Numbered from the stretch's first letter, positions 37,701 through 61,845 are shown. The stretch: 64,000 nucleotides of DNA from a virus (IMGVR_UViG_3300045988_128133); one strand, 5' to 3'. The notes: generated from the letters alone by a model not told the origin. Translations and numbers: made by a program.

Positions 37701-40700
37701 GATGACCGTCTTTCCAACTGGCGCAGGAAGAACTGGAAGGACATGACCAATGTGGAGAAGGTGAAAGCTGTATCTTCCTACCTGTACAGCTGTGCCAAGG
37801 TGTCCGCTGAAGGCGCAACCGAAGAACTCGCGGATGAGTTTCAGGAATGGGCCGTCACGGAACTGGCCAAGAACGGAGAGATTTCTGAACAGTCTATCGG
37901 TACGTTCGAAGGAGTCGTTGAAGTAGGAGCAAAGGTTGCTTTCCTTGGTGCGCTTGGCGGTGTCTATGGAGCGCGGATTGCAGGGGAGACCCCGGCCCAG
38001 TTCCAGTTGCCCGCTATCGAACCCACGGAATCCAAGGTATTCAGGGATGCGAGTCAGCTGGTGGATAGCACGGGCAAAGCCCTGGAATCCGTGGACCCCA
38101 CGGGACCCGCGGCACCCTTGCTTGAAACAGGAATGCGGACGATTGAAATCGCAGGGGATAGGGGAGACGTGGAACTGGTGGCAACTGAATGGGTAAACAA
38201 GACCATAACTGACGAGGCCCTACAGCTGACGGATGAGCAGAGAAAGCAATGGATATCTAGGGCACCTGCCCTGGGTATGACCAACTTCCAGTCTTTCCGT
38301 GGCTACGTGCAGGAAGCTTCCGACAGGTATCAGTACGAAGGCGAATCCGCCGCGGCTGAATACCTTGCGGGCGTTATTCGCGACCTGCCCAACACGATGG
38401 CCTATGCCAACGATACAAACGTCAGTGTCATGCGCTCCATGCTGACCGAAGCATTCGACGCAATGAAGAGCCGCGAAGCCAACGTTCCCCTTGATGACCA
38501 CCTCGACCTTCAGGGTACGGGGGATGAAAGCCTTGATGAAGCATCCGTCGTAATCAATACGCTGACCAATGAACCCACGGAAACCACGGAAGCCGTAGCT
38601 CCCACGGAAACCACGGAGACCGCGGCCCGTGAGGAAGCCAATAAGATAGTAGCTCCTGTGCAGAACTTCCTCGACAATGGTACGGGGAGAGAAGCCGCCG
38701 AGGAAACCGTAAATACTTTGGCCGCAGGGACGGCTACGTTTGACCCCAACACCGGGGCATGGCTAGCCAGCGGCTCCTTGGAACAGCGGGCAGAAAAGCT
38801 GGTGGTGCTTAATAGCATGACCAGTCCCACGGGCCCCGTAGTTACCACGAACACCGGGGAGAGTATTGTCATGACTCCCAACGCCAGTATGTATGCGCCA
38901 AGTGCCAACGCCAAAGCGGAAGAAGCTCCTACTACCAAATGGGGGAACGCCGTCATGAGCCTTGACCTGCCTACGGACGGGACTGGAGTCAATGGTATTA
39001 ACCTCCTGAACAGGTTGAGCGTCAACGCTACACCTGCTCAGAAGAAAGCCATTGAAGGATTGACGCAGGCTCTCAATGCCGCGGGCCTTGACCTCGCAGT
39101 CCGTATGAGCACAGCGACTGACGGTAACTTCTCCCCTGCCATGATTACCTACAATCAAGGTGCGGATGGTGAACTGGCTGGTGGCGTTATTGACCTCTTC
39201 ACCAACAGGGAGAACGCGGTGGAAGGCACTACGGGTACACTCATCCATGAAGCTATCCACCTGCTGGACCGACACCTGCGGAAGAACAATGCAGAATATG
39301 GCCGGGAAATGAGCAAGCTTCGCTCAGCTATGGCGGCTCGCTTCAACGACATCCATGCAGTCTTGCGGGAGGCTTACGACAATAGCCTTGACCCCAACGA
39401 GATGAACGCAATCGCCGCTGTCATGAACGACCTGGCCTACGGGATTAAGGGTGCTGACGAGTTCGCCTCTGTGGTCTTCTCCAACCCCGTCATCAATTCT
39501 CTGGTAATGGGATTCACCGGGAAGAATGCGGATATGGACATGCTTACCCGGTATGCGGAAACGACAGGTAAACGTAAGCCGATTCACAATCGTATCATCG
39601 ACTGGTTGCGCGACCTCTTTCATGAGGTTCGCAATGAAATGCAGAATGCGCCTGTTCTCGATGAGGCAGAATGGAACGCCTATGTCCAGCGCGTGGCCGA
39701 CGTAGCCCCGGAAGGTGCCTGGTATAGTCTTGACCGACCGGAAACCTATGCAGTAAATGTGACGGACTACACCGGGAATAAGCTGGGTAAATCCTATTTC
39801 AACCCCATGGCCTATGAGAGCGGCCTCTCCCAGCGCATGAGCTTCGGTGTGGCCGCAGAAATTGTAGGCTCTTCCTCCGGCAACTGGGCGACCATGTTCC
39901 GCAACGGTTGGCGCATGACCCGCTGGGGGCAGGGAGGTATCAACGTTCCCACCCCGGAACAGCGTCTCGTCCTACAAGAACAAATGGTCAACCTGAGCGC
40001 ATCCTATGAGCGCGTCAATAAGCGTCTGGGTAAGGTGAAGGAGCTTGCGGATAAGTATGTCCAGAAGAACAACCTCACCACTGATGCCCGGCAGAAACTT
40101 GCCTCTGCCATCATTGACACGGCAGGTAATCTGGACAATGACATCGACCCGGAAACCGTGGAACGTATTAACCGTGAAACGAATGCGGAGATTGCTCAGC
40201 TCAAGGAAACCCGTGACTACCGTATCAATGCGGCGAAGCAACACGTACAGAGGGTGGTTAATCAGAACGCTGAACTGATTCGTGCCGCCAACCTCATGGC
40301 CAACACCAGTGAAGGACGTGCATCCATCAATGAAATGATTCGTCTCCTTAACGAAGTTGGCCGGGAAGGATATGCATCTACGGTCAATGCCGAAACTATG
40401 GCTCCCGCTATGAACCAAAGGCTCACGGAATCCATGGATTCCCTGGGTTCACGGGTTCGTGACCTGGGGAATGCGGCTCTCGCCTCCCGCTACTATGCAC
40501 TGGCACGGGACACCAAGAGCTACATTCTGGACCAGGTGAATGGGGTGGAATCTCCCTTCACTCTGGATGAATTGCAGGAGGGCTGGGATAATCTGCGCTC
40601 CGACTACCTGCGTGACGAGCTGTCCAAGAACGTTGAAACGGCCAACATGCTCCGTGACATTAAGGAGGCTAAGGCTCAAGCTCGTGAATGGATTAAAGAG

Positions 40701-43700
40701 GCTAACGCGGAATACGCGCAAGCCACACGCCATACGGGTATTAAGGCAGACGGTACGGTCGTTGAATCCGGCATCGTTTGGAAGAAGCGTGATGCCGCCC
40801 TGCTGGAAGCCCGAAGGAAGAAGCAGGCTGAATTCATGGCTCGTCGTGAAGCTGGTGAAAAATACCTGAAGGAGCAAGGCGTAATCGGAAACCTCATCTA
40901 CAATGCAGTTGTCGATGCCCGCAAGGAAATCGCAGTAACGCAAATGGCTATCGCCCGCATCACGGGTGACAGCAAGATGGAAGACAATGCCAAGCGCATG
41001 GACTACCTGCATCGCACCTATCTGGCTGTGGGTAAGCACGCTGGGGACTACACGAAGACGATGCGGGAAATCATCGCCAATCCTAACGGTGAAACCGCAC
41101 AAGCCTTTAAGGGGCTTACCGTTCTGTTGAATGAAGCCGCGACGGCTCATGCCGAAACCCATCAGAGGGAGATGGCCGAAACCGTAAGCACCGTGCTGGA
41201 CAATATGCAGGCACTTGCAACCCTGCATGATGAACTGAACCTTGAGGTAGTGCCCGCAGGGGACACGGCTAACGAGAACAACGCACTCCTGTTCAATGGT
41301 GTTGCCAAGAACTTCAGAAGTCGCAATATTCTTGACTTCATCCATGACAACTATGGGGAAATTCAGTTGGCTTCTGACCTCAAGAACGGAATGAATATGT
41401 CCAGCATCTACGATAAGGCCATGTCCATGATTGTGCAGAGCGACAGGTACACGGCCAAACGTCTGGACAAAGTGAAGCGCAGGCTTCGCACGGAAGCCCA
41501 GGATAAATACATTGAATCCCTCCTACAAGGTGTGCCGGGCGATACGCTTCTGGACAAGCTGGGTTCCTTCAATTCAGGAGATGCTTTGGCCCACAGGATA
41601 AATGAAATCCTCCCCATGGTTCCGGTCAATGCCATCAACCAAATCTGGAATACCCCGCACCTGGATATTGAAGAGAAGCTGAACGACGTGGTGGACCTTC
41701 TCCGTAAGCAGGCAGAGATTCAGATGAACCTCAATGGTCTGGGCAATGTCATTAACGCTCAGGACATTAAGACGTTGGAATACCCCCAGCTCGCGGAACT
41801 GGCCATGGCTCATGCCAAGGAAGCCATTGACGAAGTACTGTCCAAGAAACGCACCCGTGAAGACGTAACGTCTATGCGGAAACGTGAACCGGAATGGAAG
41901 CGCAAGGCCATGCACGAACTCCACGATACTACCATTGGTGAAGCCATTGGCGTATTGCAGAACACTGTTTCCCTCCAGTCTAAACTGGCAGTGAATCAGG
42001 TGCTGTCTGATGAATATGCAACAGTGCTTAAGGACCAGGGGGTTGTAGTCGCGGAGGACAGTGCGGACCGTACCCCCGACATGGTGGAAGTCATGTTGAA
42101 GAATAAGCGTAATTCCCTGAACGGACTCTACACTACGCCGGATGTGGCTCGTGCCATTTACAAAATCTACATGCCCTCCGACGAAATCATGGACTCCAAG
42201 ACCAGCACGTATGAGGATGTCCGCAAGTACTGGAAGAGCCACACAGGAAGACCTGGCTTCCTCTCAAAGACGGGCGGCTACATCAACATGGCCACTCTTA
42301 TCGCCAGCCCAGGTTCCACCTTCCGTAACGCCTATGGTACTGCGGCTCAGATGCTTCATGCTGGTGCGTTCCCTGTGAAGGGGCTTAAGGACATTGGTTC
42401 CCTCGTGAAAGAATGGGGCCAGATGCACAAGCTCTACCTTAAAGCACAGGAAGGAGGCATTGGTGCGGAGTCTTCTGCTCAGAAGCTCCTACAGGCTGAG
42501 TCTAAATACAATGAGAAGATTCGCTACTGGCAGGAGATTGGTCTTCTTGATGCGGGGCAGGGTGAATTCCTTCGGAATATTTGGAAGTCCGAAGAGTTCG
42601 CGACAATGCAGGGAGAACTGGAATCCACGGATTCCGAGGATTCCTTCTATGCCTTTGCCGAAGCGTTAGAGGATAAGAGGTCCAAGACCACCATCAAAGA
42701 TGTGGCCAAGAAGGCAGGACATGGTGTTGCATACCCCGTGAAATTGGCCGCCTTTGCTTACGGGATGCCGGATGCCGCGGCTAAGATTGCGTTGTTCGGT
42801 AATCAGCAGGCACTCAGCCGCAAGCAGTTGGAGGTCCAGCTGGAACGGGCGACCATGAGAGCGGCCGCTGGGGAAGAACTCAATGCAAGGCAGAAGGCCC
42901 TTGTCCGCGCGGCAGGTAATGGTGAAGTGGCATGGAATGCGTATGTCGATAGGCATGCGGCTTCCAAGGTGAAAACCCTGCTTCCGACAGGTACGCGCAC
43001 CCCGAAGTGGGTGAAGTACATGGGGCAGTATGTTGCGCCCTACTTCATGTTCCAGTACCATACCTTCCAGTCCGCTATGTATAACGTGGGCTACGGCATG
43101 GAAGAAATTAGCGATGGTGTATGGGCTATGAAGAACGGCATGAGTAAGGACGGTGCCTACCTCGTAACCCGCGGGCTTGGCCGATTCATGGGTTCCGCGG
43201 CGGCTCTGACTGCCATGCCCATGCTTTCCCGCTGGGCTCTCATCACAGCGTTGCATACTCTTTATGGTGATGATGAGGACAAGATGCAATTCATTACGAA
43301 TGAGGGGGCACTCCGTAAGATGGCAGAGGCTGGACTCTTCCCGGAATATGACAAGTACGGTGACTTACTCGCCGTAGTGGACAAGGAAAGGAACGAGTTT
43401 ACCTACTTTAATCTTGACTATGTGAACCCCTACAAGAACGTGGTCAAGAGCTTTGGTACACTCTACAGACTAGCAGTCAAGTATGACGAAGACAAGTGGT
43501 CCAGCAATCCTATGGGTGAACTTCACAACCTGTTGGAAGGCACTGTGTTATCTCCGTCCATGGGGCTCGCTACCTTGTTTGAAGTGTTAGATGCTGAAGG
43601 ATTCCATTATCAGTATGCGACTACGGGCAATGAGAACGTGGACTTCATACCTGCGGTCGTCAATGCTCTAACCCTCACGGCGGGCTTCGAACCGTCCATG

Positions 43701-44387
43701 AGTGGCGGCCATACCTGGGAATGGGCTGAACGTCTGGCAACTACAGCGAATAGCAAACTCCCGGTCTATAGTTGGGGTGTCAAGTCTATCCGTTCTCTGG
43801 GTGGAGATACCCCCGACCTTAGCTGGGGAGCATTCGCCGCGCAGACGATTGGTACGGGGATGCGTAGGCCGAAGGACCTGACGGAAACCTTCGCTCAAGG
43901 GTTGAAGAATTCCCAAGCTTCGCTCAACCGAGCCAAGCGTATGACGATTCTCAAGCCGAACTACTATAAGCGAATGGAGTCCGGGGCTGACGTGGATGCC
44001 GTGGTTGCCGAGGAATCCGAGGCTATCATTAAGAGCTATACCAACGTGGTGAACGGGGTGCGCTTCGTCTATGGACTGAGCCGAACCTTGCCAGAGAATA
44101 TGAGGGATGCTGTCCTTGCCTCCGCTATTGAACGTTCCGGCATGAGTGCCAACAGGTTCAAGGCGGCCATGAGTGGCATCCTCCCTGAACTGATTAGCAA
44201 GGAGTCTGCCAAGGAAGCCATTGCTCGTCTCCAACTGGAAGATAAAAAGGCAAGCACGACGGAACGTGGTCATGAACTGATTCAGAAACAGATTGACCTC
44301 ATCCTCCAGCAGGCTGGAAGCGGTTCCGTGGATGTCAATGACAGAGCCTTGAGCCAGAAGGAAATTGATGGTTCTCTTCGACAGTAG
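34788..44387 (+). CDS. giant (3199 aa) multidomain virion/injection protein; tape-measure-like hydrophobic Gly-rich segments plus HExxH zincin motif
   Basis: N-terminal coiled coils, Gly-rich hydrophobic segments, and HEAIH at nt 39246-39260. Sits at the end of the tail block. Confidence 0.55.
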   Translation: MAIDFTTASPADWNPSSEITGIREARAAEKHAAWQRGQEQKALDRQKKEAEEAQKQAVKGVEAEADFFTHLSGVLDTERKEQEKRAKEQKTEARKEVTEARADIQFEQGQADRARAERDRDVKSLSRRNMGLNFEALEDMTDYVGRSADSFVDLKEGAKANPQVMEKLGNSLGLNVVSSNSLTPTDPAFTSRFGFSVGADGQPVITEKFLAIAADRNRSSKDVSTAIARTLAAERKSYIKANTTVAPDSAAKAEAEAPETMEAEEIKAIIDSIRREDVNTFNAARKVYDKYNTASTESIQGKAAKPREASVGELGVGESFDTAPSFTGNVFAELANLSKSPSTMFRLVRDYGKYVADTASTVAADARAAEAGKRAVTAAKTIDNLVKQMEDEYEGINSVALRDALMNEAKVAEAAVKRLAPMVDLDEMRAMADKKSHELGRTIESDYRRDYADTLYAELEKRNPGLSRDLIRTLGTTELLDKHTVGLKKRGSLDDAVAGAMSQYRSAAGQVADVLTFQPKASVGKTSDPLSAMEWRQGARGWEYGVVGGPTFEVSTEQLRDYMKNYGIKSTKDALNSLSHAARQGDLNLGRGTLFAYNPHTKEVDTNATLQYNPNALYDDDLFNRSVNQLQESGANPELIERTIEQWKKARTKSASEMVKQNMELEETLGALRDTWMGTGAGFAGGWVMDRLDKMLSFKEFYNSGKENGQSDEQILAAWQKEGQGAINSILRGLQIGAHKFADIGTGAVAGSLLFASNLIGSDTGREKARTMWNTLNEKQQAEGELVKGNLMADMSAEIVNLGYQMVATHVGGTVGSVAGRALERTAVNGLIKASAKVIARKTEALVPAARPGLASGISGGVQRVLNQAAAIDLQRVGAGAGVNTVIASQIVPQAYSEIFYAVYDREMDGKEHTAENLEAAQAKANRRAMMGAGIAGGMSVLINNRMGMESFIRKAVGAKNLRRENWFNRVDDRLSNWRRKNWKDMTNVEKVKAVSSYLYSCAKVSAEGATEELADEFQEWAVTELAKNGEISEQSIGTFEGVVEVGAKVAFLGALGGVYGARIAGETPAQFQLPAIEPTESKVFRDASQLVDSTGKALESVDPTGPAAPLLETGMRTIEIAGDRGDVELVATEWVNKTITDEALQLTDEQRKQWISRAPALGMTNFQSFRGYVQEASDRYQYEGESAAAEYLAGVIRDLPNTMAYANDTNVSVMRSMLTEAFDAMKSREANVPLDDHLDLQGTGDESLDEASVVINTLTNEPTETTEAVAPTETTETAAREEANKIVAPVQNFLDNGTGREAAEETVNTLAAGTATFDPNTGAWLASGSLEQRAEKLVVLNSMTSPTGPVVTTNTGESIVMTPNASMYAPSANAKAEEAPTTKWGNAVMSLDLPTDGTGVNGINLLNRLSVNATPAQKKAIEGLTQALNAAGLDLAVRMSTATDGNFSPAMITYNQGADGELAGGVIDLFTNRENAVEGTTGTLIHEAIHLLDRHLRKNNAEYGREMSKLRSAMAARFNDIHAVLREAYDNSLDPNEMNAIAAVMNDLAYGIKGADEFASVVFSNPVINSLVMGFTGKNADMDMLTRYAETTGKRKPIHNRIIDWLRDLFHEVRNEMQNAPVLDEAEWNAYVQRVADVAPEGAWYSLDRPETYAVNVTDYTGNKLGKSYFNPMAYESGLSQRMSFGVAAEIVGSSSGNWATMFRNGWRMTRWGQGGINVPTPEQRLVLQEQMVNLSASYERVNKRLGKVKELADKYVQKNNLTTDARQKLASAIIDTAGNLDNDIDPETVERINRETNAEIAQLKETRDYRINAAKQHVQRVVNQNAELIRAANLMANTSEGRASINEMIRLLNEVGREGYASTVNAETMAPAMNQRLTESMDSLGSRVRDLGNAALASRYYALARDTKSYILDQVNGVESPFTLDELQEGWDNLRSDYLRDELSKNVETANMLRDIKEAKAQAREWIKEANAEYAQATRHTGIKADGTVVESGIVWKKRDAALLEARRKKQAEFMARREAGEKYLKEQGVIGNLIYNAVVDARKEIAVTQMAIARITGDSKMEDNAKRMDYLHRTYLAVGKHAGDYTKTMREIIANPNGETAQAFKGLTVLLNEAATAHAETHQREMAETVSTVLDNMQALATLHDELNLEVVPAGDTANENNALLFNGVAKNFRSRNILDFIHDNYGEIQLASDLKNGMNMSSIYDKAMSMIVQSDRYTAKRLDKVKRRLRTEAQDKYIESLLQGVPGDTLLDKLGSFNSGDALAHRINEILPMVPVNAINQIWNTPHLDIEEKLNDVVDLLRKQAEIQMNLNGLGNVINAQDIKTLEYPQLAELAMAHAKEAIDEVLSKKRTREDVTSMRKREPEWKRKAMHELHDTTIGEAIGVLQNTVSLQSKLAVNQVLSDEYATVLKDQGVVVAEDSADRTPDMVEVMLKNKRNSLNGLYTTPDVARAIYKIYMPSDEIMDSKTSTYEDVRKYWKSHTGRPGFLSKTGGYINMATLIASPGSTFRNAYGTAAQMLHAGAFPVKGLKDIGSLVKEWGQMHKLYLKAQEGGIGAESSAQKLLQAESKYNEKIRYWQEIGLLDAGQGEFLRNIWKSEEFATMQGELESTDSEDSFYAFAEALEDKRSKTTIKDVAKKAGHGVAYPVKLAAFAYGMPDAAAKIALFGNQQALSRKQLEVQLERATMRAAAGEELNARQKALVRAAGNGEVAWNAYVDRHAASKVKTLLPTGTRTPKWVKYMGQYVAPYFMFQYHTFQSAMYNVGYGMEEISDGVWAMKNGMSKDGAYLVTRGLGRFMGSAAALTAMPMLSRWALITALHTLYGDDEDKMQFITNEGALRKMAEAGLFPEYDKYGDLLAVVDKERNEFTYFNLDYVNPYKNVVKSFGTLYRLAVKYDEDKWSSNPMGELHNLLEGTVLSPSMGLATLFEVLDAEGFHYQYATTGNENVDFIPAVVNALTLTAGFEPSMSGGHTWEWAERLATTANSKLPVYSWGVKSIRSLGGDTPDLSWGAFAAQTIGTGMRRPKDLTETFAQGLKNSQASLNRAKRMTILKPNYYKRMESGADVDAVVAEESEAIIKSYTNVVNGVRFVYGLSRTLPENMRDAVLASAIERSGMSANRFKAAMSGILPELISKESAKEAIARLQLEDKKASTTERGHELIQKQIDLILQQAGSGSVDVNDRALSQKEIDGSLRQ

Positions 44388-52541: not shown

Positions 52542-52889
52542 TTAGAGAATAGGTGGGTTAATTCCGAAGTCCTTCATCCAGCGGGCCAGTACTGCGGCCT
52601 GGCTGATATGTTTACGCATGCGCTTCCTGCATATGTTGGTTGCAATCTCAATCAGGAAGGAGGGAAGGAACCAAACCAAGATGAGAGCGCACCATACATG
52701 GAAACCCAGGTCAAACTTTCCAACCACACCCGCAACAAGCATGGCGGTGGAGAGAAGGAATCCCACAACAGTGGTTGCAATCGTAGATTTTTCGAGCAAG
52801 TCCCATGCGGTGTGGTACCTATCCGCAAGGCCCATGTGCTTCAAATACTGGGCACGGGTATTAAGCACGGCTTCCTTAAACGTGTTCAT
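52542..52889 (-). CDS. small membrane protein (2-3 TM)
   Basis: Hydrophobic segments. Confidence 0.4.
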   Translation of the reverse strand: MNTFKEAVLNTRAQYLKHMGLADRYHTAWDLLEKSTIATTVVGFLLSTAMLVAGVVGKFDLGFHVWCALILVWFLPSFLIEIATNICRKRMRKHISQAAVLARWMKDFGINPPIL

Positions 52890-52912
52890 AGCGTTCTATG
52901 AGGGTTCTAGAA

Positions 52913-53521
52913 TTAACGGAAAACTACCTTAATTTCAGTCACATCTGAATCACCCTTCTTCTCAACCACCGTGCTAAACTTCACCATGCAGGGGAGGAAC
53001 ATCTTTTCGGCCATGCGGCGAGCCTTAATAGAGTTCAGCTTCTGAGCCTGTGGTTCGTCGGCGTTCAGTACCCTGAATTTCATGTAGGTCAGGCTTTGGT
53101 CTACCATGAAGTCAACGGCTTGAATCTCATTTGCAATTCTGAATGCCACATCCTGCCAGTTCTGGGTTATCACCTCCATGAAGGTACGTGCCCACTGCAC
53201 GGCATCCTTGAGTGACAGGGAAGCCACTTCCAAAATCGTCAGCACCTGCCCATTCCACTTCATCTTGTGAATACGGGTAATGTACGAAGTAAGGGAAATG
53301 CGTTGCAGTTCAACGGCATAAGGTCTCCGATACGGTTTGATGAATACCGAGCCTTCACCATTCCAAAGTTCCGGCTTCTCAATGCGTACAGACTCTTCAT
53401 CCTTATGTAGGAGCAGGGTGTTAGGCTGAATTTTATTTACATAGGTGGTCAATCTAATCCATTCAGGGCGAGAAAGTTCTTCACGGCTCTTGCATTCAGT
53501 ATTTACGAAAAAGGCTTTCAT
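52913..53521 (-). CDS. hypothetical protein
   Basis: 202 aa. Confidence 0.4.
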   Translation of the reverse strand: MKAFFVNTECKSREELSRPEWIRLTTYVNKIQPNTLLLHKDEESVRIEKPELWNGEGSVFIKPYRRPYAVELQRISLTSYITRIHKMKWNGQVLTILEVASLSLKDAVQWARTFMEVITQNWQDVAFRIANEIQAVDFMVDQSLTYMKFRVLNADEPQAQKLNSIKARRMAEKMFLPCMVKFSTVVEKKGDSDVTEIKVVFR

Positions 53522-53623
53522 GATTTATAGCGTTCTATGAGGTTTCTAGTATTTTGGTTGATGTTAATTTAGGTTAATTATCTTTTTTCTTTTGGATTGT
53601 TAGGGTAGCCTAATTTGTTAGTT

Positions 53624-54700
53624 CTATCTAAGGGAAGAAGTATCAAGCACCGGGTGCACTGGGTTAGTCTCCGAGTTGACAAGATAGGAAGAATGGGAAG
53701 ACATGAGGACGTGAAGCCGTTGATGCACCGCCTGATAGTGGCGGTGAGCATCTAACCATTCCGTCAAGAGACTGCGTAGGTACCGCTCACTTTTAGCACT
53801 AGTCAAAGCCGCTTCCACCTTTTCAAGCTCGCTTTTAATACGGTTCTCCTGCTCTTTCAAGACTTGCGCCAATTCCGCTTGCGCCCCTTCATCCAGTCGG
53901 AAGCTGACGGAACCACGGCATACATTGAAGGCACTTGCAGGGAAAGAAATAAGCTCAATAGCTTCCGCATCCGTTGAACAGTCTTCGCACCTTACCCAGA
54001 CTTGCACGGCTAATCTCTCCATATCCACAAGAACATCAAGGCCATGTTTGTCATGCAGATTGCGAAGGGCCTCAATTTCGCCGGACGCACGGTTGAATAA
54101 ATGTTCAGCAAGGTAGGGTGTGAAGCGATACCCTGCTAATGCCTTCAAATCAAGGCGTAATGCGGTCAGGAGATACTGGGAAACTGTCAAAGCTATCCGG
54201 CGATTGATTAGATAAGACTGTGTGCGCTTGATATCATGGAGAATAGACCACGCCGCATTGTGACATGCGGCCCCTTCATCAGGAGAGAGCAGGGGAAGAA
54301 AAGTACTCATGGCTCCAGCGCAAGCATTATCCACCTGCTTTAAATGGTTGTCTATTTGGTCATACCCGTTCACGCTCAAGAAGTTGAACAGGTTTGCATG
54401 GGGAGAAGCGGCTAAAGTTTTTCCGTTGGTAATATGAACTCCGTACGTTGGCATGAAATGGGAGGTTGCCAGCGTTACGCCGTTTCTCCGGCGCATTTGC
54501 GCCCCTTCTGCGTCATACGTCCAATTATAATCTGCATAGTTTATCCCATTGAACAGGAAAGCTTTCTGGATATCGTCCGGTTCCGGGTTGTCCAAATATT
54601 TCACAGGTCGAAGGCAATCCAAATCACCGCAGAATTGAATGAGAGAAAGGGTGTTGTCCTTGAAACTCTTGACAAGTTTAGTTGCGGAAATGTTTGTCAT
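53624..54700 (-). CDS. hypothetical protein
   Basis: 358 aa. Confidence 0.4.
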   Translation of the reverse strand: MTNISATKLVKSFKDNTLSLIQFCGDLDCLRPVKYLDNPEPDDIQKAFLFNGINYADYNWTYDAEGAQMRRRNGVTLATSHFMPTYGVHITNGKTLAASPHANLFNFLSVNGYDQIDNHLKQVDNACAGAMSTFLPLLSPDEGAACHNAAWSILHDIKRTQSYLINRRIALTVSQYLLTALRLDLKALAGYRFTPYLAEHLFNRASGEIEALRNLHDKHGLDVLVDMERLAVQVWVRCEDCSTDAEAIELISFPASAFNVCRGSVSFRLDEGAQAELAQVLKEQENRIKSELEKVEAALTSAKSERYLRSLLTEWLDAHRHYQAVHQRLHVLMSSHSSYLVNSETNPVHPVLDTSSLR

Positions 54701-54735
54701 ACTTAAATAATTGCTTAGGGTTAATGAGTTAGGAA

Positions 54736-55536
54736 TTAGCGGTTGTACTTAGGAAGGGCGGCGTTGTAGTCCGTGCGCTTGTAGTGATATGTTTTCGGTG
54801 ACGTAATGGACGCAATAAGGGCATCCTGCTTCACCAGTTCACGCTTTACTTTAATTGTAGATTGCACAATCTTTCGCAAGATGCTTTCTTTCTGCATGTT
54901 GTGGAGAGATGTAAGAGCACTTTCCGCCTTAGATTCCAGATATTCCACAGTTGCGTTTAGCTTGTCAATCACGGGTTGCATGTCATCTACGCTAACAATG
55001 CGCCCAGTTTCCGGACTCACTAACACCTTAAAATCCAACGGGAAAGAAATATGTTCCTCCAATCCTAGGCTTCCGTGGAATCGGAGGCAATGCAAATCGT
55101 AATTGCTGAAATCTACATAGCCTTTAATTGTACGGAGAGTCTCTTTTTTCCGGGCATCATCCAAAGAGTCGGAGAAGCAAGCCTTTATGGCATTGTCCAA
55201 CCGGGCGTTGTAGACCTTACCCGCAAAACTGGGAAGCTTAGCAATTAGCCGCCTGATGAAGTCAATGGAGATATTGGCGGCGTAATAATAATTAAAAAGT
55301 TTCACTCGTGTAACATTCAAATCATCCAAAAAGGTACGGATTGATGCACCCAGTTCCCGCCAGTCATCTTTACCGAGGCCTTCCCCCGGTTCACCGTTGA
55401 ACTGGTTCCAGACTTCTTCCCGAACCGTTTTAATAGCGGCATCACTTTTCGTCATGTATGCAATCGTTTCGTTATGTGTGGTATATTTCATTTTCTTATT
55501 CTTTCTATTGGTTTTGTTAATATCCTTAAATATCAA
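54736..55536 (-). CDS. hypothetical protein
   Basis: 266 aa. Confidence 0.4.
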   Translation of the reverse strand: MIFKDINKTNRKNKKMKYTTHNETIAYMTKSDAAIKTVREEVWNQFNGEPGEGLGKDDWRELGASIRTFLDDLNVTRVKLFNYYYAANISIDFIRRLIAKLPSFAGKVYNARLDNAIKACFSDSLDDARKKETLRTIKGYVDFSNYDLHCLRFHGSLGLEEHISFPLDFKVLVSPETGRIVSVDDMQPVIDKLNATVEYLESKAESALTSLHNMQKESILRKIVQSTIKVKRELVKQDALIASITSPKTYHYKRTDYNAALPKYNR

Positions 55537-56084
55537 TCAATTATGCGTAACACCCTTGCTTCTGCGTCATCCGTACTGGGTGCCATATAACGCCCGCAAC
55601 CGTCAAAAGTTTCCGTTGCGGATGCGTCCATGAAATTAGTATGGACGTAATAGCTAAGATAAGGGCGGCCGTGCTTCGCATAATTCCACCCTACGGGAGC
55701 ATATTCATCATTCCAACGCATATCTGCAACACGCTTAAAACCTGCGTTTTTATATATTTTCGATAAATGGGGCGTATCGAGGCACATCAGCCACCCGGCA
55801 CCGTGAGCAACCGCATCACAGACTAGCCCGCTTCCGAGTATGATACTTTTCGGAGACTTAATGAGAGATACTAGCTCAAGATTTTCCGTGATTGCATAAA
55901 CTGCAACCGGGTTTGACGGTGTGCCTATCAAGTGGCAGTGCGCTTTCTTTTGGACATACCAGCTTTCTTCATGCACATCCACCGCGCCGCGCGTTCCTTC
56001 GTCAATCTTATTACGCAATTTATGCGCGGCGGTCAGCCATTCATTAAGGTCTTCGGTTTCGGCGTTGTAGCAATATCTATTCAT
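55533..56084 (-). CDS. possible GNAT-fold acetyltransferase
   Basis: ILGSGLVCDAVAHGAGW...YKNAGFKRV is a weak match to the acetyl-CoA-binding motif A. Confidence 0.3.
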   Translation of the reverse strand: MNRYCYNAETEDLNEWLTAAHKLRNKIDEGTRGAVDVHEESWYVQKKAHCHLIGTPSNPVAVYAITENLELVSLIKSPKSIILGSGLVCDAVAHGAGWLMCLDTPHLSKIYKNAGFKRVADMRWNDEYAPVGWNYAKHGRPYLSYYVHTNFMDASATETFDGCGRYMAPSTDDAEARVLRIID

Positions 56085-56149
56085 AATCTATTGTCTTTCT
56101 ATTGTTCGGTTGTTTTGTTCACCGCCCCTTATTGGCGGCTGATGTGGCT

Positions 56150-56177
56150 ATTTTAGCGGATTTGCGGATGTTGTCAA
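56150..56177 (-). promoter_or_regulatory. early promoter TTGACA-N16-TAAAAT (cassette A)
   Basis: Minus-strand read. TTTTGTCATACA lies at 56192-56203, an AT-rich UP-like tract, and a conserved leader hairpin CCGCC/GGCGG. Confidence 0.55.
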
Positions 56178-56185: not shown

Positions 56186-56576
56186 TTAGACTGTATGACA
56201 AAACGGAGATTTATTTAGTAGTTTTGCTATCTGTATTTTTGCAATTCTGTGAGAAGGAAACACCCTAGAACATTTTCTTTTATATGTTGATAAGGTGCAA
56301 GGTGTTAGACAATTTGCCCGAACGTAATAAATTGTTGAATCTTCTTCTCCACCGTAAGGACGTACTAAACCTATTTCAATATATCCGGCTGAAATAAGTT
56401 CTTCAATGGGTCTTTTTGTTGCAATAGCCAGCCAGCTATACTTCTCCAACTGTACCGCATCTTTAATAGGTACGGAAGAAGCCTTTTCATCCGATACGGG
56501 AATCAATTCACTATTTACTACCTTATACCGGAACACCAAATCGTCAGCCAAAGGTAAAAATTTTATTCTTTTCATA
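56186..56576 (-). CDS. hypothetical early protein (ATG 56576)
   Basis: TTGTCATACAA at 56590-56602 abuts its start region. Confidence 0.35.
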
Positions 56577-56601
56577 TTATTTTTCAAGGTTGTATGACAA
56601 A

Positions 56602-57150
56602 TTACAAATAATTAACATGAGAGAGATACTTACTCCAATTCAGATTTTCCGGCTCTACTTCCTGCCCTTTCACCTGACGGAAGCGCATAAAGAGCTCCAC
56701 CTTTTTTCCTTTGGTATCATATCCGGGTGCGCTCCACTCTTCCAGATATTCTTCCCCCTCCCCCGCGTGGTGAATACTACCCGGAAAAAATCGGTTGGAA
56801 AGGGTCATTTGACGGGTGGCGCAATAGACGTGCCCTTGATAGACATACCCGCCGAACTGTTTTCGGAGTCCGTGAAAATCAACAGGGCATTGACCTTGCA
56901 CAAAGTAAAAATTATTGTTAACTACCAACCCTAAACGGAGGGAAACTGCACCGAGAGCACGGGCAATCAAACCTTCCAAAGATTTGACGGAATCGGAGGC
57001 GGTCAAATAGACTACCCATGCTTGGCCATGCCTCCAACAAATATGTTCCCGTTGGAGTGCGTTCTTAACACGTTTTTTAGCGTTGCGCCCTTCGGCACCT
57101 TGTGCATTGAGGCAGTCAAATAAAATTACGATTGTTTTTGCAGTTTTCAT
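56602..57150 (-). CDS. hypothetical early protein
   Basis: 182 aa. Confidence 0.35.
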   Translation of the reverse strand: MKTAKTIVILFDCLNAQGAEGRNAKKRVKNALQREHICWRHGQAWVVYLTASDSVKSLEGLIARALGAVSLRLGLVVNNNFYFVQGQCPVDFHGLRKQFGGYVYQGHVYCATRQMTLSNRFFPGSIHHAGEGEEYLEEWSAPGYDTKGKKVELFMRFRQVKGQEVEPENLNWSKYLSHVNYL

Positions 57151-57204
57151 ATTTAGTTTTTCTATTTGGTTTGTTCACCACCCTTGTGGGTGGCTGATGA
57201 AGTT

Positions 57205-57232
57205 AATCTAGCAGATTTTGCTACCTTGTCAA
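57205..57232 (-). promoter_or_regulatory. early promoter TTGACA-N16-TAGATT (cassette B)
   Basis: Leader hairpin is CCACCC-ACAA-GGGTGG. Confidence 0.5.
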
Positions 57233-57266
57233 ATTATTTTTTACTTTGTATGACAAAATGGATAAA

Positions 57267-57587
57267 TTATTGATTGATAATGGCTTGTGCGTAGTCCATA
57301 ATATTGCTTACGTGTACAACCCGGAAGCGTTCCTGTTCCGCAATCAGGGCAATGTCTTTTTGCTGACGGGAAGTTGTCTGGGAGTATTTGCGGGAAGAAA
57401 GATAAAGGATTTTATTTGCTCTATCTACTGCCGCAATTATGGTGGCATATGAGTACAAGAGCGGCCCCTCAAATTTCATTGAGCGAAGGCTTCCATAGTT
57501 GGTGCGGCGCAATGGTGCTTTCCCGCTGGTTGCGGTTCCGTCCAGATACGGGTACATAAGTTTTTCAACGTAGTTTCGGGTATTCAT
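57267..57587 (-). CDS. hypothetical early protein
   Basis: 106 aa. Confidence 0.35.
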   Translation of the reverse strand: MNTRNYVEKLMYPYLDGTATSGKAPLRRTNYGSLRSMKFEGPLLYSYATIIAAVDRANKILYLSSRKYSQTTSRQQKDIALIAEQERFRVVHVSNIMDYAQAIINQ

Positions 57588-57643
57588 ATTCTGTTTTCTT
57601 TCTATTTGATTTGTTTGCCGTCCTATCGGTGGCTGATGAAGCT

Positions 57644-57671
57644 AGTTTATCGGATTTGATGATGTTGTCAA
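57644..57671 (-). promoter_or_regulatory. early promoter TTGACA-N16-TAAACT (cassette C)
   Basis: TTTTGTCATACAA lies at 57699-57711. Confidence 0.5.
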
Positions 57672-57717
57672 CTATTTTATTTAAAATTTTTCATCTTTGT
57701 ATGACAAAAGTTGAAAC

Positions 57718-57951
57718 CTATTTATTTTCAGTGCGTTTCACGTTTGTAAATATTAGGCAGGTTAAGGGGCCGCTGGTAGGGCATATGCCTGATAAAACCC
57801 ATTCACCGGGAAATTTCCGCTTGTCAATTCTTTTTTCTCTTTTTTGCGGTGTATCTGATTTCGGCCCTAGCGTCATCACCCTTTCCGGCGTTCCCCTCAT
57901 TCTGCCTATCCGAAATGTTTCGGTGGTTATCTCGTCCATATTAAGCGGCAT
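57718..57951 (-). CDS. possible small basic protein in 228-nt gap
   Basis: 77-aa ORF that overlaps the upstream stop by 11 nt. Composition is only moderately coding-like. Confidence 0.2.
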   Translation of the reverse strand: MPLNMDEITTETFRIGRMRGTPERVMTLGPKSDTPQKREKRIDKRKFPGEWVLSGICPTSGPLTCLIFTNVKRTENK

Positions 57952-58264
57952 TCATTCCGGCATCTTCCAGCATCAAGCAAAGCGGGTCAGAAATGTGCAC
58001 CCGTGAAACTTTCCAATCGGCTTCATTTCGGCGGTACTCGTCAATCGTCATTTCCCGGTGCGGTACGTTTTTGAGCAGGCCCCGCTTTTTTGCGATAATG
58101 GTAAGAGTTGCACCGCATTTTTCCGCTAGGTTAGTAAGATAGACTAGTTCCGTTGCGGCATTTTTTGATAGTTGCAGGGTATATGGTTCAACCTGCCTCA
58201 CATTAGCGGCTAGATTTTTAATCATCACCCGTTCATAAGGTTTGAGTTCGGCAATGGTATTCAT
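57941..58264 (-). CDS. hypothetical early protein
   Basis: 107 aa. No promoter of its own, so probably co-transcribed with the 58289 gene. Confidence 0.35.
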   Translation of the reverse strand: MNTIAELKPYERVMIKNLAANVRQVEPYTLQLSKNAATELVYLTNLAEKCGATLTIIAKKRGLLKNVPHREMTIDEYRRNEADWKVSRVHISDPLCLMLEDAGMNAA

Positions 58265-58288
58265 GATTGATTGTTAGTAGGTTAAAGA

Positions 58289-58528
58289 TTAGTCAAAAAG
58301 CAGTTCAAAGCCGTCTTCATACTTGCTCAATTCCGCATCCCATGAATCCGCAACTTCTTTGATAAGTGATTCAATGGCTTCCGGGTTTTCGGTAATTACG
58401 TAGATAATGCAAGTGTTGGTGGTGCGGAAACTTTGCCCCGTGATGCGGTTGATATGCTGGTGTATGTTTTGCTGATGCGCCTTTTCCCAGATTTCGCTTG
58501 CAATTATTGCCATAGTTTCTTCTCTCAT
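58289..58528 (-). CDS. small acidic early protein
   Basis: 79 aa, acidic. Confidence 0.35.
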   Translation of the reverse strand: MREETMAIIASEIWEKAHQQNIHQHINRITGQSFRTTNTCIIYVITENPEAIESLIKEVADSWDAELSKYEDGFELLFD

Positions 58529-58607
58529 AATCTATTGTCTTTCTATTTGGTTTGTTCACCGCCCCTTGTGGGTGGCTGATACCGCTATCGCGGCGGGTTA
58601 TGCGGCT

Positions 58608-58635
58608 ATTTTATCGGGTGTTCTAATGTTGTCAA
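58608..58635 (-). promoter_or_regulatory. early promoter TTGACA-N16-TAAAAT (cassette D)
   Basis: Consensus -35 and -10 elements, with TTTTGTCATACAA at 58664-58676. Confidence 0.55.
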
Positions 58636-58690
58636 CTATTTTATTTAAAATTTTTCGAGGTTGTATGACAAAATCGTAAATTGTTGATTA

Positions 58691-59185
58691 TTAGTTAGAT
58701 AGTTTGAAGTGAGGGCGGGCAATACTGGTTGGCAGGTAAATATCATCATGGGTGGCAAAGAGCACACGCCCATTGCGGATGACCGCAAACGCCGTCCACC
58801 CGTCATTGCGGGCAAGTACTGATGTCAGGGCGTTAAGATAGGTTCCTATCGTCCTGCGTCCGTCCGGTTTGTGTGCACCAACGGGCGGCTCGCTTTTATC
58901 GCACCAGAAATAGACGGTGCAGTTATGAAGTGAAGTAGATAATGGGGCCGGAATGATGCCCGTGTATCTATAGCGGCTCTCCACATACCAAGGTGTACAA
59001 GGTGCCGGGCCACCAAAGGCAGGGGAGTTTTCGAACCGGGAGTCTGGGGCGGTAGGGGAGACAAGCAAAAAATGACGGGAAAACTCGTCAGCTTGTGCCC
59101 GTTCTTCGGCGGTCGTATCTCCAAAGTCTCCTGTACGGAGGTAATTGACAAGGCGGGTAGGAATATATGCAATATCTGTGTTCAT
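58691..59185 (-). CDS. hypothetical early protein
   Basis: 164 aa. Confidence 0.35.
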   Translation of the reverse strand: MNTDIAYIPTRLVNYLRTGDFGDTTAEERAQADEFSRHFLLVSPTAPDSRFENSPAFGGPAPCTPWYVESRYRYTGIIPAPLSTSLHNCTVYFWCDKSEPPVGAHKPDGRRTIGTYLNALTSVLARNDGWTAFAVIRNGRVLFATHDDIYLPTSIARPHFKLSN

Positions 59186-59233
59186 ATGTTTATTTTGGTT
59201 GCGGGGGAGGTACCGCCCCCCGGTGATTGATAT

Positions 59234-59575
59234 TTAGTCATTAACGCCGAAGGCCAAACGGGCGGCGGCTCCCATGACGGAGGTATTAAGCTCATGCCGG
59301 GTTGCTACGATATTATTGCCCTGACGGGTGGCCACATCCGTGAAATAGAGATTGCGGGCCTTGCGGGCATCCTTATCATTGCGGATATCATGGCCCAGAT
59401 AGTTTTCCAGTAGGTCTTTATCCTCATTCCAACATGCCGCAACGTCGATATTATCGATGCAGGGCCTAATGGATTCTGTGGGCACCGGGGATGCAAAGAC
59501 TGTCCGGCTTCCGTGGGTTACAAACATGTGTAAGGTTCCGGCGTTATCTTCAATCACAATGTAGTTCATATTCAT
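59234..59575 (-). CDS. hypothetical early protein
   Basis: 113 aa. Confidence 0.35.
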   Translation of the reverse strand: MNMNYIVIEDNAGTLHMFVTHGSRTVFASPVPTESIRPCIDNIDVAACWNEDKDLLENYLGHDIRNDKDARKARNLYFTDVATRQGNNIVATRHELNTSVMGAAARLAFGVND

Positions 59576-59637
59576 AATATATTGTCTTTTTCTATTTTGG
59601 TTTGTTATTCACCGCCTTATTGGCGGTTGATGCGGCT

Positions 59638-59665
59638 ATTTTATCGGGTATGATGACGTTGTCAA
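59638..59665 (-). promoter_or_regulatory. early promoter TTGACA-N16-TAAAAT (cassette E)
   Basis: Leader hairpin is ACCGCC-AATAA-GGCGGT. Confidence 0.55.
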
Positions 59666-59731
59666 CTATTTTTTTTTTAAAATTTTTTCAGCTTGTATGA
59701 CAAAAGTTGCAATGCCCTCACTACGTGTGAC

Positions 59732-60313
59732 TTATCGCACGGGAAAAACTTCGCATCCTACCACAACCACCCGGCAATATTCCCGGCCGTCATTCTTGGC
59801 TTCCCGGATTGTGGTGACTAGCCGGGTTAAATCGTCCGGGTTTTTGAGGGTGAGGGCAAGAGCCGAGCAAGTGACGGTACCAAGTTCCATTGCTTCAAAA
59901 TTGGATTTAATGGCGGCGAGTACCCGGGTGCGGGTCTCTTTGTTTTTGATAAGACTAGCCATGACGATTACTTTTTTCCCGGCATACTTTGCAGACAGTT
60001 CGGCGGGCGTGGGGGAAATGGCACTAAAGGCATGGCGGCCCGCATTCCTCATATTTTCCCACAAGGGGCGGCGGCAATAAACTAGTTCTGTCCCCGGCGT
60101 TGCGGCCGTTGCAGTCCACCACTTGCGGGCATCGATGATATCTACGGGCATTTTCCAGCTCTTCACCTCATGCAAATTGTTGAGCATGTGTGGCAAGTAT
60201 TCAGCCGATACCGGGCCAGCAAATCTGATATCACCTAGATTATCAACCACAACTAAACGGAGTTCACCCGTCTTTGTTTCGTACACTAGCACATGGAGTT
60301 CTTTCTTATTCAT
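59732..60313 (-). CDS. hypothetical early protein
   Basis: 193 aa. Its N-terminus is duplicated in the adjacent pseudogene. Confidence 0.4.
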   Translation of the reverse strand: MNKKELHVLVYETKTGELRLVVVDNLGDIRFAGPVSAEYLPHMLNNLHEVKSWKMPVDIIDARKWWTATAATPGTELVYCRRPLWENMRNAGRHAFSAISPTPAELSAKYAGKKVIVMASLIKNKETRTRVLAAIKSNFEAMELGTVTCSALALTLKNPDDLTRLVTTIREAKNDGREYCRVVVVGCEVFPVR

Positions 60314-60326
60314 ATCTTATATCTTT

Positions 60327-60522
60327 CTATCGTTTGGTTTGATTTGTTTTGTGGTAGTTATTAAGCGTTTTCGGTATCGTTCAAATTACGTAGGAGGGTG
60401 AGCAAGGATTCTGTGGGTACAATAGGGGCGATTGCCTGATTCCCCTTATCGTCCATGACTATCATACGGAGTTCACCCGTCCGGGTTTCGTAAATATGTG
60501 CGGTCACTTTGGCCATGTTCAT
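60327..60522 (-). pseudogene. frameshifted partial duplicate of the 5' end of gene 59732..60313
   Basis: MNMAKVTAHIYETR, then a +1 shift, then TGELRMIVMDDKGNQAIAPIVPTESLLTLLRNLND aligns with HVLVYETKTGELRLVVVDNLGD...LNNLHE. DNA shares the 15-mer ACGGGTGAACTCCGT, and the shift comes from a 1-nt insertion. Confidence 0.45.
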
Positions 60523-60572
60523 ATTCTATTGTTTTTCTATCGTTTAGCCGCCAATGAGGGTGACGGTTACAA

Positions 60573-60602
60573 GTATTATTTAGTATTTTCGGAGGTTGTC
60601 AA
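60573..60602 (-). promoter_or_regulatory. early promoter TTGACA-N18-TAATAC (cassette F, variant leader)
   Basis: Leader shares the 33-nt block ggttacaagtattatttagtattttcggaggtt with the 61017 region. Confidence 0.35.
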
Positions 60603-60626
60603 TAAGTTTTTTCGGAGTATGACAAA

Positions 60627-61019
60627 TTAAAGCAAACGGTCATCGATGACGCTAACCCATTGATTATTTGCCGCATCATAGCGGGGTGCAACAAAGAGAG
60701 CGGAATCAACCCCTAGCGGCATCCATGCAATGCGCTCATGCATGGGCAGATTGTTGAGGAGACTCGCCGGGGGTGTGCCGTCAGGGGAAATGAGCATCAC
60801 GCCATTTTCGGAGGCCCGTACAACAGTCACACCCGGATAATTCCGGGAAACGTTCGGCCATGCGTACCGGGTCATGAGGTCTAAAATCAGCAAGGCATCT
60901 TTAGCAGTCATGCCCGTATACCAACGTACCCGGTCATCTACCGTTGACCACATAATAAGAGTAGATTCTTGCAGTTCGTAGCTTATATGCAGGTTTTCAA
61001 TAATTCCTTTCAGCTTCAT
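60627..61019 (-). CDS. hypothetical early protein
   Basis: 130 aa. Its upstream cassette lacks TTGACA, so it is probably co-transcribed with the 61093 gene. Confidence 0.35.
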   Translation of the reverse strand: MKLKGIIENLHISYELQESTLIMWSTVDDRVRWYTGMTAKDALLILDLMTRYAWPNVSRNYPGVTVVRASENGVMLISPDGTPPASLLNNLPMHERIAWMPLGVDSALFVAPRYDAANNQWVSVIDDRLL

Positions 61020-61092
61020 AAGTTATTGTCTTTCTATTGTTTGGCCTTCCTTTCGGCGGTGGTTACAAGTATTATTTAGTATTTTCGGAGGT

Positions 61093-61323
61093 TTAGGCAC
61101 GGAGCCGGACTTTCCAATCTTCAACGGTGGCGGGCAAGCCGAAAGCCGGGAAGCGGGTGAAGTAGTGCTCTTCACCGCAACGAGCCACAAGGTAATAGTC
61201 AGCTTTAAACCCATTGGCAAGCGCAATGTCCTCAAGGGTTAGGCCGTCCGTATCTCCGTATTCCAAATAACAAAGGGCCCATTCAGGAATTGCGGCGATT
61301 TCGTATTCTTCCAGTTCGTTCAT
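61093..61323 (-). CDS. small acidic early protein
   Basis: 76 aa. First gene of the array. Confidence 0.35.
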   Translation of the reverse strand: MNELEEYEIAAIPEWALCYLEYGDTDGLTLEDIALANGFKADYYLVARCGEEHYFTRFPAFGLPATVEDWKVRLRA

Positions 61324-61379
61324 ATCTATTATCTTTCTATTGTTTGGTTTAACCTCCCTTGTGGGCGGTTGATGTGCTC

Positions 61380-61407
61380 ATTTTACAAGAGAGTAGGGTA
61401 CTGTCAA
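61380..61407 (-). promoter_or_regulatory. early promoter TTGACA-N16-TAAAAT (cassette G)
   Basis: Here the TTTTGTCATACA element (61476-61487) is in inverted orientation. Confidence 0.5.
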
Positions 61408-61529
61408 TAGATTTATTTGATAATTGTTGATACTCATTGGCGAAAGCGGTGTAACTCGTTGAACCTGTGGCAATTATGATTTTGTCATACATCTCCGCTT
61501 CGCTATGATGCGGGCCGTACATCTCCGCT

Positions 61530-61742
61530 CCCACGGTTCCCACGGTTCCCACGGTTCCCACGGTTCCCACGGTCGCCATATGTGCGTGCGCGCGTGTGCG
61601 TGCATATGTATATAGTGGTTGCCGTGGGTTCCGTGGAGTCCGTGGAGTGTATGGGTAGCATGGGAACCGTGGAGTGTATGGGTAGCATGGGAACCGTGGA
61701 GTCAATGGGAACCGTGGAGTCAATGGGAACCGTGGGTTCCGG
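61530..61742. repeat. large imperfect inverted-repeat cluster of CCACGG-type units (candidate ori/pac/partition site)
   Basis: 5x tandem CCCACGGTT (61530-61574), then an alternating Pu/Py tract (61577-61614), then inverted units GGAACCGTGGAGT: 2x a 27-bp unit plus 2x an 18-bp unit (61621-61742). Confidence 0.85.
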
Positions 61743-61810: not shown

Positions 61811-61845
61811 TAGTTTAGGTTTCTTAATAGTTTAGGTTTCTTAAT
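61811..61845. repeat. direct repeat AGTTTAGGTTTCTTAAT x2; nearby AAAATTTATAC x3 (61847, 61879, 61971)
   Basis: Seen directly in the sequence. Confidence 0.7.

Follow-up and report, generated by a model that had tools for sequence, protein, structure and literature searches.

The 64,000-nt stretch of DNA analysed here (the window; positions are counted from its first letter) belongs to IMGVR_UViG_3300045988_128133, an uncultivated phage of ~70 kb. Genes between ~45.7 and 61.4 kb lie on its minus strand, and the early genes among them are separated by copies of a short element, Box A: the exact 10-mer TTTGTCATAC, which in the sense of these minus-strand genes reads TTTTGTCATACAA. An earlier note on this DNA had described the element as conserved at gene boundaries, and k-mer counting shows it to be over-represented: the window holds 10 exact copies where 0.11 are expected from dinucleotide-preserving shuffles, and 0/100 shuffles reach 10. 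The 11-mer TGTATGACAAA, allowing at most one mismatch, has 11 matches against 1.09 expected.

Seven copies are on the minus strand, and TTGACA-N16-TAnnnT lies downstream of six of them. The copy at 56193-56202 heads the cassette that drives gene 55533-56084; it overlaps the last codons of an open reading frame (ORF) at 56186-56575, and 23 nt separate the T of its TGTCATAC from the start of TTGACA. Short cassettes begin at 57248-57257 (box, AAGTAAAAAATAAT, TTGACAAG) and at 60617-60626, where the box reads ATTTGTCATACT and stands immediately 3' of the TAA stop of gene 60627-61019. Long cassettes begin at 57699-57708 (box, AAGATGAAAAATTTTAAATAAAATAG, TTGACAAC, with a spacer like a full UP element), 58663-58672 and 59695-59704, the last with its -35 at 37 nt. 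The seventh copy, 56592-56601, has no promoter. It lies immediately 3' of the TAA stop of gene 56602-57150 and is followed by AACCTTGAAAAATAAT and then, 17 nt downstream, by the ATG (56575) of a 129-aa gene with no promoter between, which agrees with the earlier description of a promoterless copy at a gene start.

Three further copies are on the plus strand. One, at 61481-61490, is inverted relative to the early genes and sits at the boundary between the first early promoter and a field of iterons. Another, at 18352-18361 in a plus-strand gene block, follows a terminator-like hairpin (18322-18351) and, as previously claimed, precedes a TTGACA promoter, TTGACA (18375)-N16-TATGTT (18397-18402); it is kept in the relatives L207-L209, two of which have another Box A promoter nearby. 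The third, at 54693-54702, overlaps the start codon of minus-strand gene 53624-54700 and has decayed to TTTTTCATAC in a distant relative, and is for these reasons probably a chance match. This tenth exact copy was missing from the earlier note, whose positions for the others hold to within 1-5 nt, with some shifted.

At the promoters, Box A lies on the same strand as the genes that follow and opens a composite cassette of fixed order: box, 4-6 variable bases, A-tract, TTGACAA(C/G), 16 nt, a -10 element (TAAAAT, TAAACT or TAGATT), hairpin, leader and ATG. The A-tract, AAAAAATAAT in the short form and GAAAAATTTTAAATAAAATAG in the long form, is UP element-like in both, and the box with its adjoining A-tract was recovered in a repeat search of the window as a seven-copy, 26-nt family (D5), alongside the leader and longer cassettes (families D1-D6 in all). 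In an independent promoter scan, seven cassette promoters match 10-11 of the 12 sigma-70-type consensus positions. A core promoter of this type lies at 56150-56177 (minus strand; 11/12 positions), with equivalents at 57205-57232, 57644-57671, 58608-58635, 59638-59665 and 60575-60602 on the same strand. The first early promoter, P1 (61380-61407, minus strand; TTGACA-16-TAAAAT), is the sole complete cassette promoter of the early block without a direct Box A. TTGTCA in the box and TGACAA at the -35 are exact reverse complements and give an inverted repeat flanking the A-tract with variable spacing (17 or 29-31 nt), to which we ascribe no mechanism.

The distance from the T of TGTCATAC to TTGACA falls into two classes, 21-24 nt and 35-37 nt. 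If transcription starts 7 nt after the -10, short cassettes have the centre of the box core near -52 to -55, and long cassettes have it near -66 to -68. These positions are 12-14 bp apart, so the direct copies do not share one helix face, and the class I position near -70 proposed in the earlier note is not what the cassettes display. Its placement of the element at gene boundaries is correct in that an upstream stop codon precedes the copies by 0-28 nt, 56193 excepted, but the box belongs to promoters rather than to gene ends: early-block junctions without a promoter carry no box, with two exceptions. A terminator scan found no intrinsic terminators between the tandem early promoters; copies in the early block have no hairpin upstream of them, and only the one at 18352 follows a terminator.

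Downstream of the core promoter, a G+C-rich hairpin starts ~10 nt past the -10, where each early transcript is inferred to have its 5' end (for example 57176-57196, minus strand; a second lies at 56118-56140). Over 73 distinct cassettes from across the family, its mean z is -3.2 relative to shuffles. The stems vary (GCCGCC/GGCGG, CCACCC/GGGTGG, GCGGGG/CCCCGC) with structure and position kept, and the hairpin is likely a stabiliser of the mRNA 5' end. The leader that follows is A/C-rich and conserved (AACAAACCAAATAGAAAGACAATAGATT), lies directly before the ATG and has no Shine-Dalgarno sequence, as in AACAATAGAAAGACAATAGATT-ATG at 56078-56111 (minus strand; family D3, 8 copies in the early block). 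The leader common to early genes has the form AACAA(A)CCAAATAGAAAGACAATAGATT-ATG, in which ATAGAAAG stands 9-13 nt 5' of the start codon; AGAAAG is complementary to the CUUUCU tail at the 3' end of the 16S rRNA of many bacteria.

Relatives of the phage were collected from metagenomes by pattern and protein searches of IMG/VR, as loci of at most 20 kb, and promoter contexts were compared in 32 related loci that form two clades. Close relatives share ~92% nucleotide identity, and one lineage is 71% identical in amino acids. The second clade (clade B), which is abundant, shares ~51% identity in the neighbouring 202-aa protein. Box A is present in every relative group of both clades. Among 85 distinct Box A contexts, 56 have a -35 hexamer 21-24 or 35-37 nt downstream and 17 are the single inverted boundary copy beside the iterons; the other 12 consist of 2 promoterless junctions, 3 variant promoters whose -35 is altered or missing, and 7 intragenic or start-codon matches. 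Counted from the promoters, 101 distinct contexts divide into 47 with Box A, 24 with a different sequence that we call Box B, and 30 with neither. The flanks vary among the 47 Box A promoters and the TGTCATAC core is exact; two single-base variants were seen, both at the same position.

Alignment of 25 non-redundant copies shows the core and the three T's preceding it (TTT-TGT) to be nearly invariant, although only the flank values are unbiased, since the core served to select the sites. On the right, A occupies position 9 in 20/25 copies and position 10 in 18/25; several copies read ...ATACT, and there is no conservation further out. Such poor conservation of the right palindrome arm makes the conserved unit asymmetric, and the quasi-palindromic site for a dimeric regulator envisaged in the earlier note is not supported by the alignment. 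The hairpin TTGT-CAT-ACAA was rejected for the same unconserved arm. Sequences like Box A also occur in another phage of this sample: a 44-kb contig without similarity to the window (IMGVR_UViG_3300045988_075567, locus L001, 860-1000) carries them as iterons, in a five-unit array like TGTGACA(A/T)TTTGTCA(T/C)ACCCCC.

Box B (TTACRCCGCYCTA) is unrelated in sequence, occupies the slot of Box A always at 21 nt from the -35, and occurs in clade B only; it is absent from the window. Its layout is TGAAWAR-YTACRCCGCYCTA-AAAAAGTAT-TTGACAAG in loci L167 and L170-L195 (for example L167 674-797 and 1713-2059), and it is found at promoterless junctions too. Box B resembles one arm of the cassette hairpin (GTTCACCGCCC), and a partial match to it (TTACACCGCTTTC) lies in the window at 61442-61454, upstream of P1.

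The inverted boundary copy is found at the same place and in the same orientation in every relative examined, between the iterons and P1. It is antisense to all annotated genes around it, it has neither the A-tract nor the remaining cassette, and the sequence 3' of it is unconserved between lineages. In clade B (11 distinct sequences) it lies 62 bp from the -35 of P1; the distance is 72 bp in L201, and clade A has 83 bp. These steps of 10 and 11 bp mean that the same helix face is kept across the three lineages in which the phasing is seen, and steps of about one turn are what a DNA-bound factor acting on P1 would require. That a conserved copy is inverted beside the first promoter suggests that the box is recognised on DNA. 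Together, its conservation and phasing are the strongest argument for DNA recognition that acts on a promoter from a distance.

The field of CCACGG/CCGTGG iterons adjoining this copy (61529-61741, no strand assigned) comprises five direct TCCCACGGT repeats, an alternating purine-pyrimidine core and ~8 inverted CCGTGG units, and looks like a replication origin. The core is a 40-nt near-palindrome (CATATGTGCGTGCGCGCGTGTGCGTGCATATG), and the inverted CCGTGG units recur in 18- and 27-nt periods. The flanks extend to ~61990 with two 17-nt repeats (61811-61845) and three AAAATTTATAC boxes. In relatives, another iteron (GGTTCCCCC) occupies this place, along with a TATATATAG tract.

Box A also coincides with sites of genetic exchange. 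Breakpoints between relatives fall within a few nucleotides of Box A or of cassette edges: those at Wrc 3372/3384, 5329, 7397/7399 and 7816 compare with boxes at 3377, 5331, 7402 and 7801. The 129-aa gene and one Box A (window 56186-56601) are present in the window and in L122 and missing from L123 and L197. There the 182-aa gene is followed immediately by a long-type cassette, and Box A copies flank the gap. Early-gene content varies even between genomes that are ~92% identical. Since the box and cassette are the sole sequences common to otherwise unrelated small genes, they would be the points at which crossovers occur.

We give an even chance to the explanation that Box A is the DNA site of a sequence-specific protein which controls the early promoters, probably negatively, and that recombination points between gene modules are marked by it as well. 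Among the proposals of the earlier note was a site on DNA for a regulatory protein, and this is the best reading of the element; 56 of the 85 contexts have a -35 within 21-37 nt downstream. The box would form the upstream edge of the repeated early-promoter cassettes, directly 5' of the UP-like A-tract, with one inverted copy ~90-115 bp upstream of the first early promoter, beside the iterons. Box A would be occupied by a phage or host protein that binds asymmetrically, probably as a monomer. So placed, the bound protein would stand beside the expected position of the alpha C-terminal domain of RNA polymerase, presumably that of the host, and could modulate all early promoters together. Because the core promoters are near consensus and have UP-like tracts, negative control is more likely than activation; it could take the form of early-transcription shut-off or of a block to read-through between tandem promoters. 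As a secondary effect, early-gene modules would be gained, lost and exchanged through crossovers at the box and cassette.

Several observations weigh against control of the early promoters by a protein bound at Box A. The bimodal spacing to the -35 (21-24 and 35-37 nt) is unphased, which disfavours a rigid contact between an activator and polymerase, and two distinct junctions bear Box A without any promoter. Depending on the genome, the same core promoter and gene lie behind Box A or behind Box B (for example, the L018 cassette at 4539 and the L167 intergenic region 1713-2059), and this interchange implies that the box is not a gene-specific determinant and may be dispensable. Shine-Dalgarno sequences are absent from the upstream regions of all genes, which suggests a Bacteroidota-like host, and if the host is of this kind it is uncertain that its main sigma factor uses TTGACA/TAAAAT. 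The candidate binder is poor as well. Of two helix-turn-helix proteins named in the earlier note, at 23060 and 23517, the first is not recognisable as such, and the second (23517-23873) is a MarR-type winged helix, the sole recognisable DNA-binding protein in the window. Its homologues are all at least 61% identical and form 11 small clusters from close relatives, whereas the box is conserved across both clades. A homologue search of this kind can, however, miss distant small proteins; the MarR-type protein is a weak candidate for the binder.

Other functions can be envisaged for an oriented intergenic element. Box A could act in the transcript or on elongating polymerase, as a factor-dependent terminator, pause, roadblock, or processing or stability signal that insulates promoters. 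Its position 0-28 nt past an upstream stop in sense orientation fits this, as do the lack of intrinsic terminators between tandem promoters, the copy at 18352 directly after a terminator hairpin, the promoterless junction copies, and the movement of the box with the upstream module in recombinants; the stoperators of L5-type phages offer a precedent as asymmetric, oriented, intergenic sites that stop elongation (PMC9283540). We regard such a role as rather unlikely: the box is missing from most promoterless junctions, its phased and conserved copy at the boundary runs against all the annotated transcription nearby, and neither RNA structure nor an Rfam match is found at the box, the sole Rfam match being a sub-threshold microRNA model on the iterons. 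The RNA processing or attenuation signal suggested in the earlier note is disfavoured on similar grounds, by the absence of a hairpin or U-tract at the box and of an Rfam family, and by the conserved inverted copy, which favours DNA. It is also quite unlikely that Box A has no regulatory role and is the edge of a cassette spread and homogenised by recombination, or the target of a recombination or homing enzyme. The breakpoints at Box A and cassette edges, the 129-aa gene indel bounded by two boxes, and an arrangement like that of the promoter-early stem-loop (PeSL) cassettes of T4-type phages (PMC2839356, PMC4122927) would all follow from this. Homogenisation should, however, conserve the whole cassette evenly, and instead the 10-mer is invariant while the spacer and upstream flank are free; the conserved, phased boundary copy without a cassette would be left unexplained, and no recombinase or homing nuclease is found among the scanned proteins.

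Two more explanations make Box A a promoter element in its own right, and a third ties it to replication. We think it improbable that the box acts as a promoter, or as a promoter's key element, for a phage-encoded or modified polymerase or sigma factor, in which case each gene would have tandem promoters and the boundary copy would fire into the iterons. Box orientation strictly follows the downstream genes, the promoterless copy at 56592 lies 17 nt before an ATG, the boundary copy faces origin-like repeats, and the box has a constant relation to the N4-6 and AAAAAT that follow it. The genome is moreover N4-like or crAss-like in size and gene order, with a 3,199-aa ORF (34788-44387, plus strand) closing the structural block. 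Nothing in Pfam, PHROG or PDB matches this giant protein, though, and it lacks both the DFDxD motif and T7-like catalytic motifs; no polymerase or sigma factor is detectable among the other scanned proteins; downstream of the boundary copy the A-tract is missing and the sequence unconserved, and it is with P1 that this copy is in phase in all relatives. Very improbable, in our estimation, is that Box A is no operator but the recognition sequence of a transcription or DNA-entry machinery not yet recognisable by its own sequence, such as an activity of the domainless 3,199-aa protein in the virion or a phage factor that redirects polymerase. Were this the case, each early gene would have two tandem promoters, one of Box A type and one of sigma-70 type, and the inverted copy would transcribe into the iteron field and fire the origin. 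Architectural proteins often have sites at origins and strong promoters alike, and Box A could bind a replication-linked or architectural protein (an IHF/Fis-like host factor, or an accessory to a phage initiator), with its role at the origin primary and that at promoters secondary. One copy is indeed kept by every relative independently of the cassette and adjoins iterons and an AT-rich or alternating core, but most copies are at promoters distant from the iterons, the E. coli consensus sequences for IHF, Fis and DnaA do not match the box, and the iteron field is itself only a putative origin; we rate a primarily replicative role highly unlikely.

A number of narrower assignments were tried and rejected. 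None of the E. coli consensus sequences for IHF, Fis, DnaA or CRP fits the box. The Bacteroidota-type promoter (TTTG at -33, TAnnTTTG at -7) is unfit in its spacing and its 'TA', and the bases before TTTG are unconserved. Read as a sigma-70 -35, the box gives TTGTCA-16-TATGAT at 61482 (plus strand) and ATGACA-16-TATTTT at 57701 (plus strand), with -10 elements unconserved in paralogues and relatives. Antisense ORFs from the ATG in the reverse complement of the box have inconsistent frames and mostly 5-7 codons. None of the terminator-like sites found falls at a box, where there is neither hairpin nor U-tract. Chi-like, fork-barrier and nick sites would need no fixed place beside an UP element, and they predict an orientation pattern with which the copy at 18352 disagrees. 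A full-text literature search for the sequence as a published motif returned only unrelated primers and a paper on PhoB.

Specific sites adjoining the UP element or -35 of sigma-70-type promoters are familiar from the phi29 p4 sites upstream of A3 and A2c, the P2 Ogr/P4 delta site (TGT-N12-ACA near -55) and Fis site I by the UP element of rrnB P1. Box A may be analogous to these in its location and in being repeated at each promoter of one temporal class, and upstream binding of this sort may activate or repress. It differs from them in its unrelated sequence, in being an asymmetric 10-mer rather than a dyad, in its two unphased spacings and in its near-consensus cores. A class I (CRP-like) site fails on the dyad, as the left side is invariant and the right arm weakly conserved. 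As to phasing, the direct copies, 21-24 or 35-37 nt from the -35, are unphased; the boundary copies, at 62, 72 and 83 bp, are phased, in only three lineages.

Asymmetric sites of monomeric activators include the MarA/SoxS marbox and the MotA box of T4, and the Pho box consists of two direct 11-bp repeats (CTGTCAT plus 4 A/T; half-site CTGTCATA) that replace the -35. The TGTCATA of Box A equals the core of one Pho half-site, and its asymmetric, orientation-dependent recognition would be marbox- or MotA-like as well. Yet Box A has a single TGTCATA, the next 11 bp are A-tract with no second repeat, and an intact TTGACA lies downstream. With the marbox and the MotA box it shares no sequence similarity, and it stands upstream of an intact -35 instead of replacing it.

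The stoperators of L5 and other cluster A phages are ~13-bp asymmetric sites present in many copies in short intergenic spaces, with an orientation that follows transcription; L5 is temperate, and its immunity repressor binds them (PMC9283540). Box A is likewise asymmetric, multi-copy, intergenic and, at promoters, oriented with transcription, which is compatible with a monomeric binder. It departs from the stoperators in having a conserved copy inverted to the genes on both sides, in never overlapping the core promoter and in its unrelated sequence, and no repressor or integrase was recognised among the window proteins scanned. Judged by sequence, Box A belongs to none of the phi29, P2/P4, rrnB P1 or L5 families; it may work like the upstream regulator sites of the first three, with a resemblance to L5 in copy number, asymmetry and orientation.

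The cassette as a whole has parallels too. In the PeSLs of T4-type phages, a terminator stem-loop precedes the early promoter (PMC2839356, PMC4122927). Both systems have repeated composite early-promoter cassettes between small genes without assigned function in a plastic region, with indel or swap breakpoints in the cassettes; the Box A cassette differs in that its hairpin comes downstream of the -10, where the transcript has its 5' end, and in its extra invariant box, which PeSLs lack. The crAss-like phage phi14:2 has genes without Shine-Dalgarno sequences and tripartite middle promoters (bioRxiv 10.1101/2020.03.07.982082), and so resembles the present phage in its translation starts and in having a third conserved block beside -35-like and -10-like blocks. 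The motif is a different one: in the phi14:2 genome, the four published promoter regions upstream of g070, g075, g108 and g110 read TTG...TAnnTTTG after an A-tract and contain no TTTGTCATAC, and this promoter type was rejected for Box A.

Elsewhere in the window, the plus strand encodes the large terminase subunit (TerL), an exonuclease and part of a helicase, and the minus strand an NAD-dependent ligase, a thymidylate synthase and a nucleotide kinase. The 3,199-aa protein has 400 homologues, many of them on contigs of ~67-71 kb and with ~50% identity in the abundant clade, which indicates that the phage family is large; one neighbouring protein cluster has 619 members. A 437-kb contig (P0110) carries one homologue, perhaps through integration or misassembly. 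Nucleotide and TerL protein searches found no similarity to cultured phages, crAss-like ones included, and ligase-based and cassette-pattern searches for the host in 185,579 species genomes gave chance matches only.

The first early gene (61093-61323, minus strand) encodes a 76-aa DUF6926 protein (E = 4e-16). A weaker match to this family is seen in the 164-aa early protein encoded at 58691-59185 (minus strand) and in clade B (L167 1182-1712). Among the middle genes, a junction CTAGAA(A/C)CCTCATAGAACGCT lies just before the ATG at 52890-52912 and 53522-53560, upstream of minus-strand genes 52542-52889 and 52913-53521, and similar TTAGAAMCCTCA... junctions occur in clade B (L167); this junction may be a second promoter class or a translation signal. 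The intergenic region 19140-19181, just before gene 19182-19754, is made up of ~4 repeats of TTAACCAA (TTAACCAATTAACCAATTAACCAATTAACTAATTG).

A protein site associated with promoters is an ordinary kind of element, and Box A leaves the understanding of phage regulation unchanged. Its meaning is for the family itself, hardly any gene of which has been given a function: together with the cassette, the 5' hairpin and the leader, Box A is the first of its regulatory code that can be read. These parts may serve as markers of early genes, as predictors of the points at which modules are exchanged, and as a bait sequence for the regulator.

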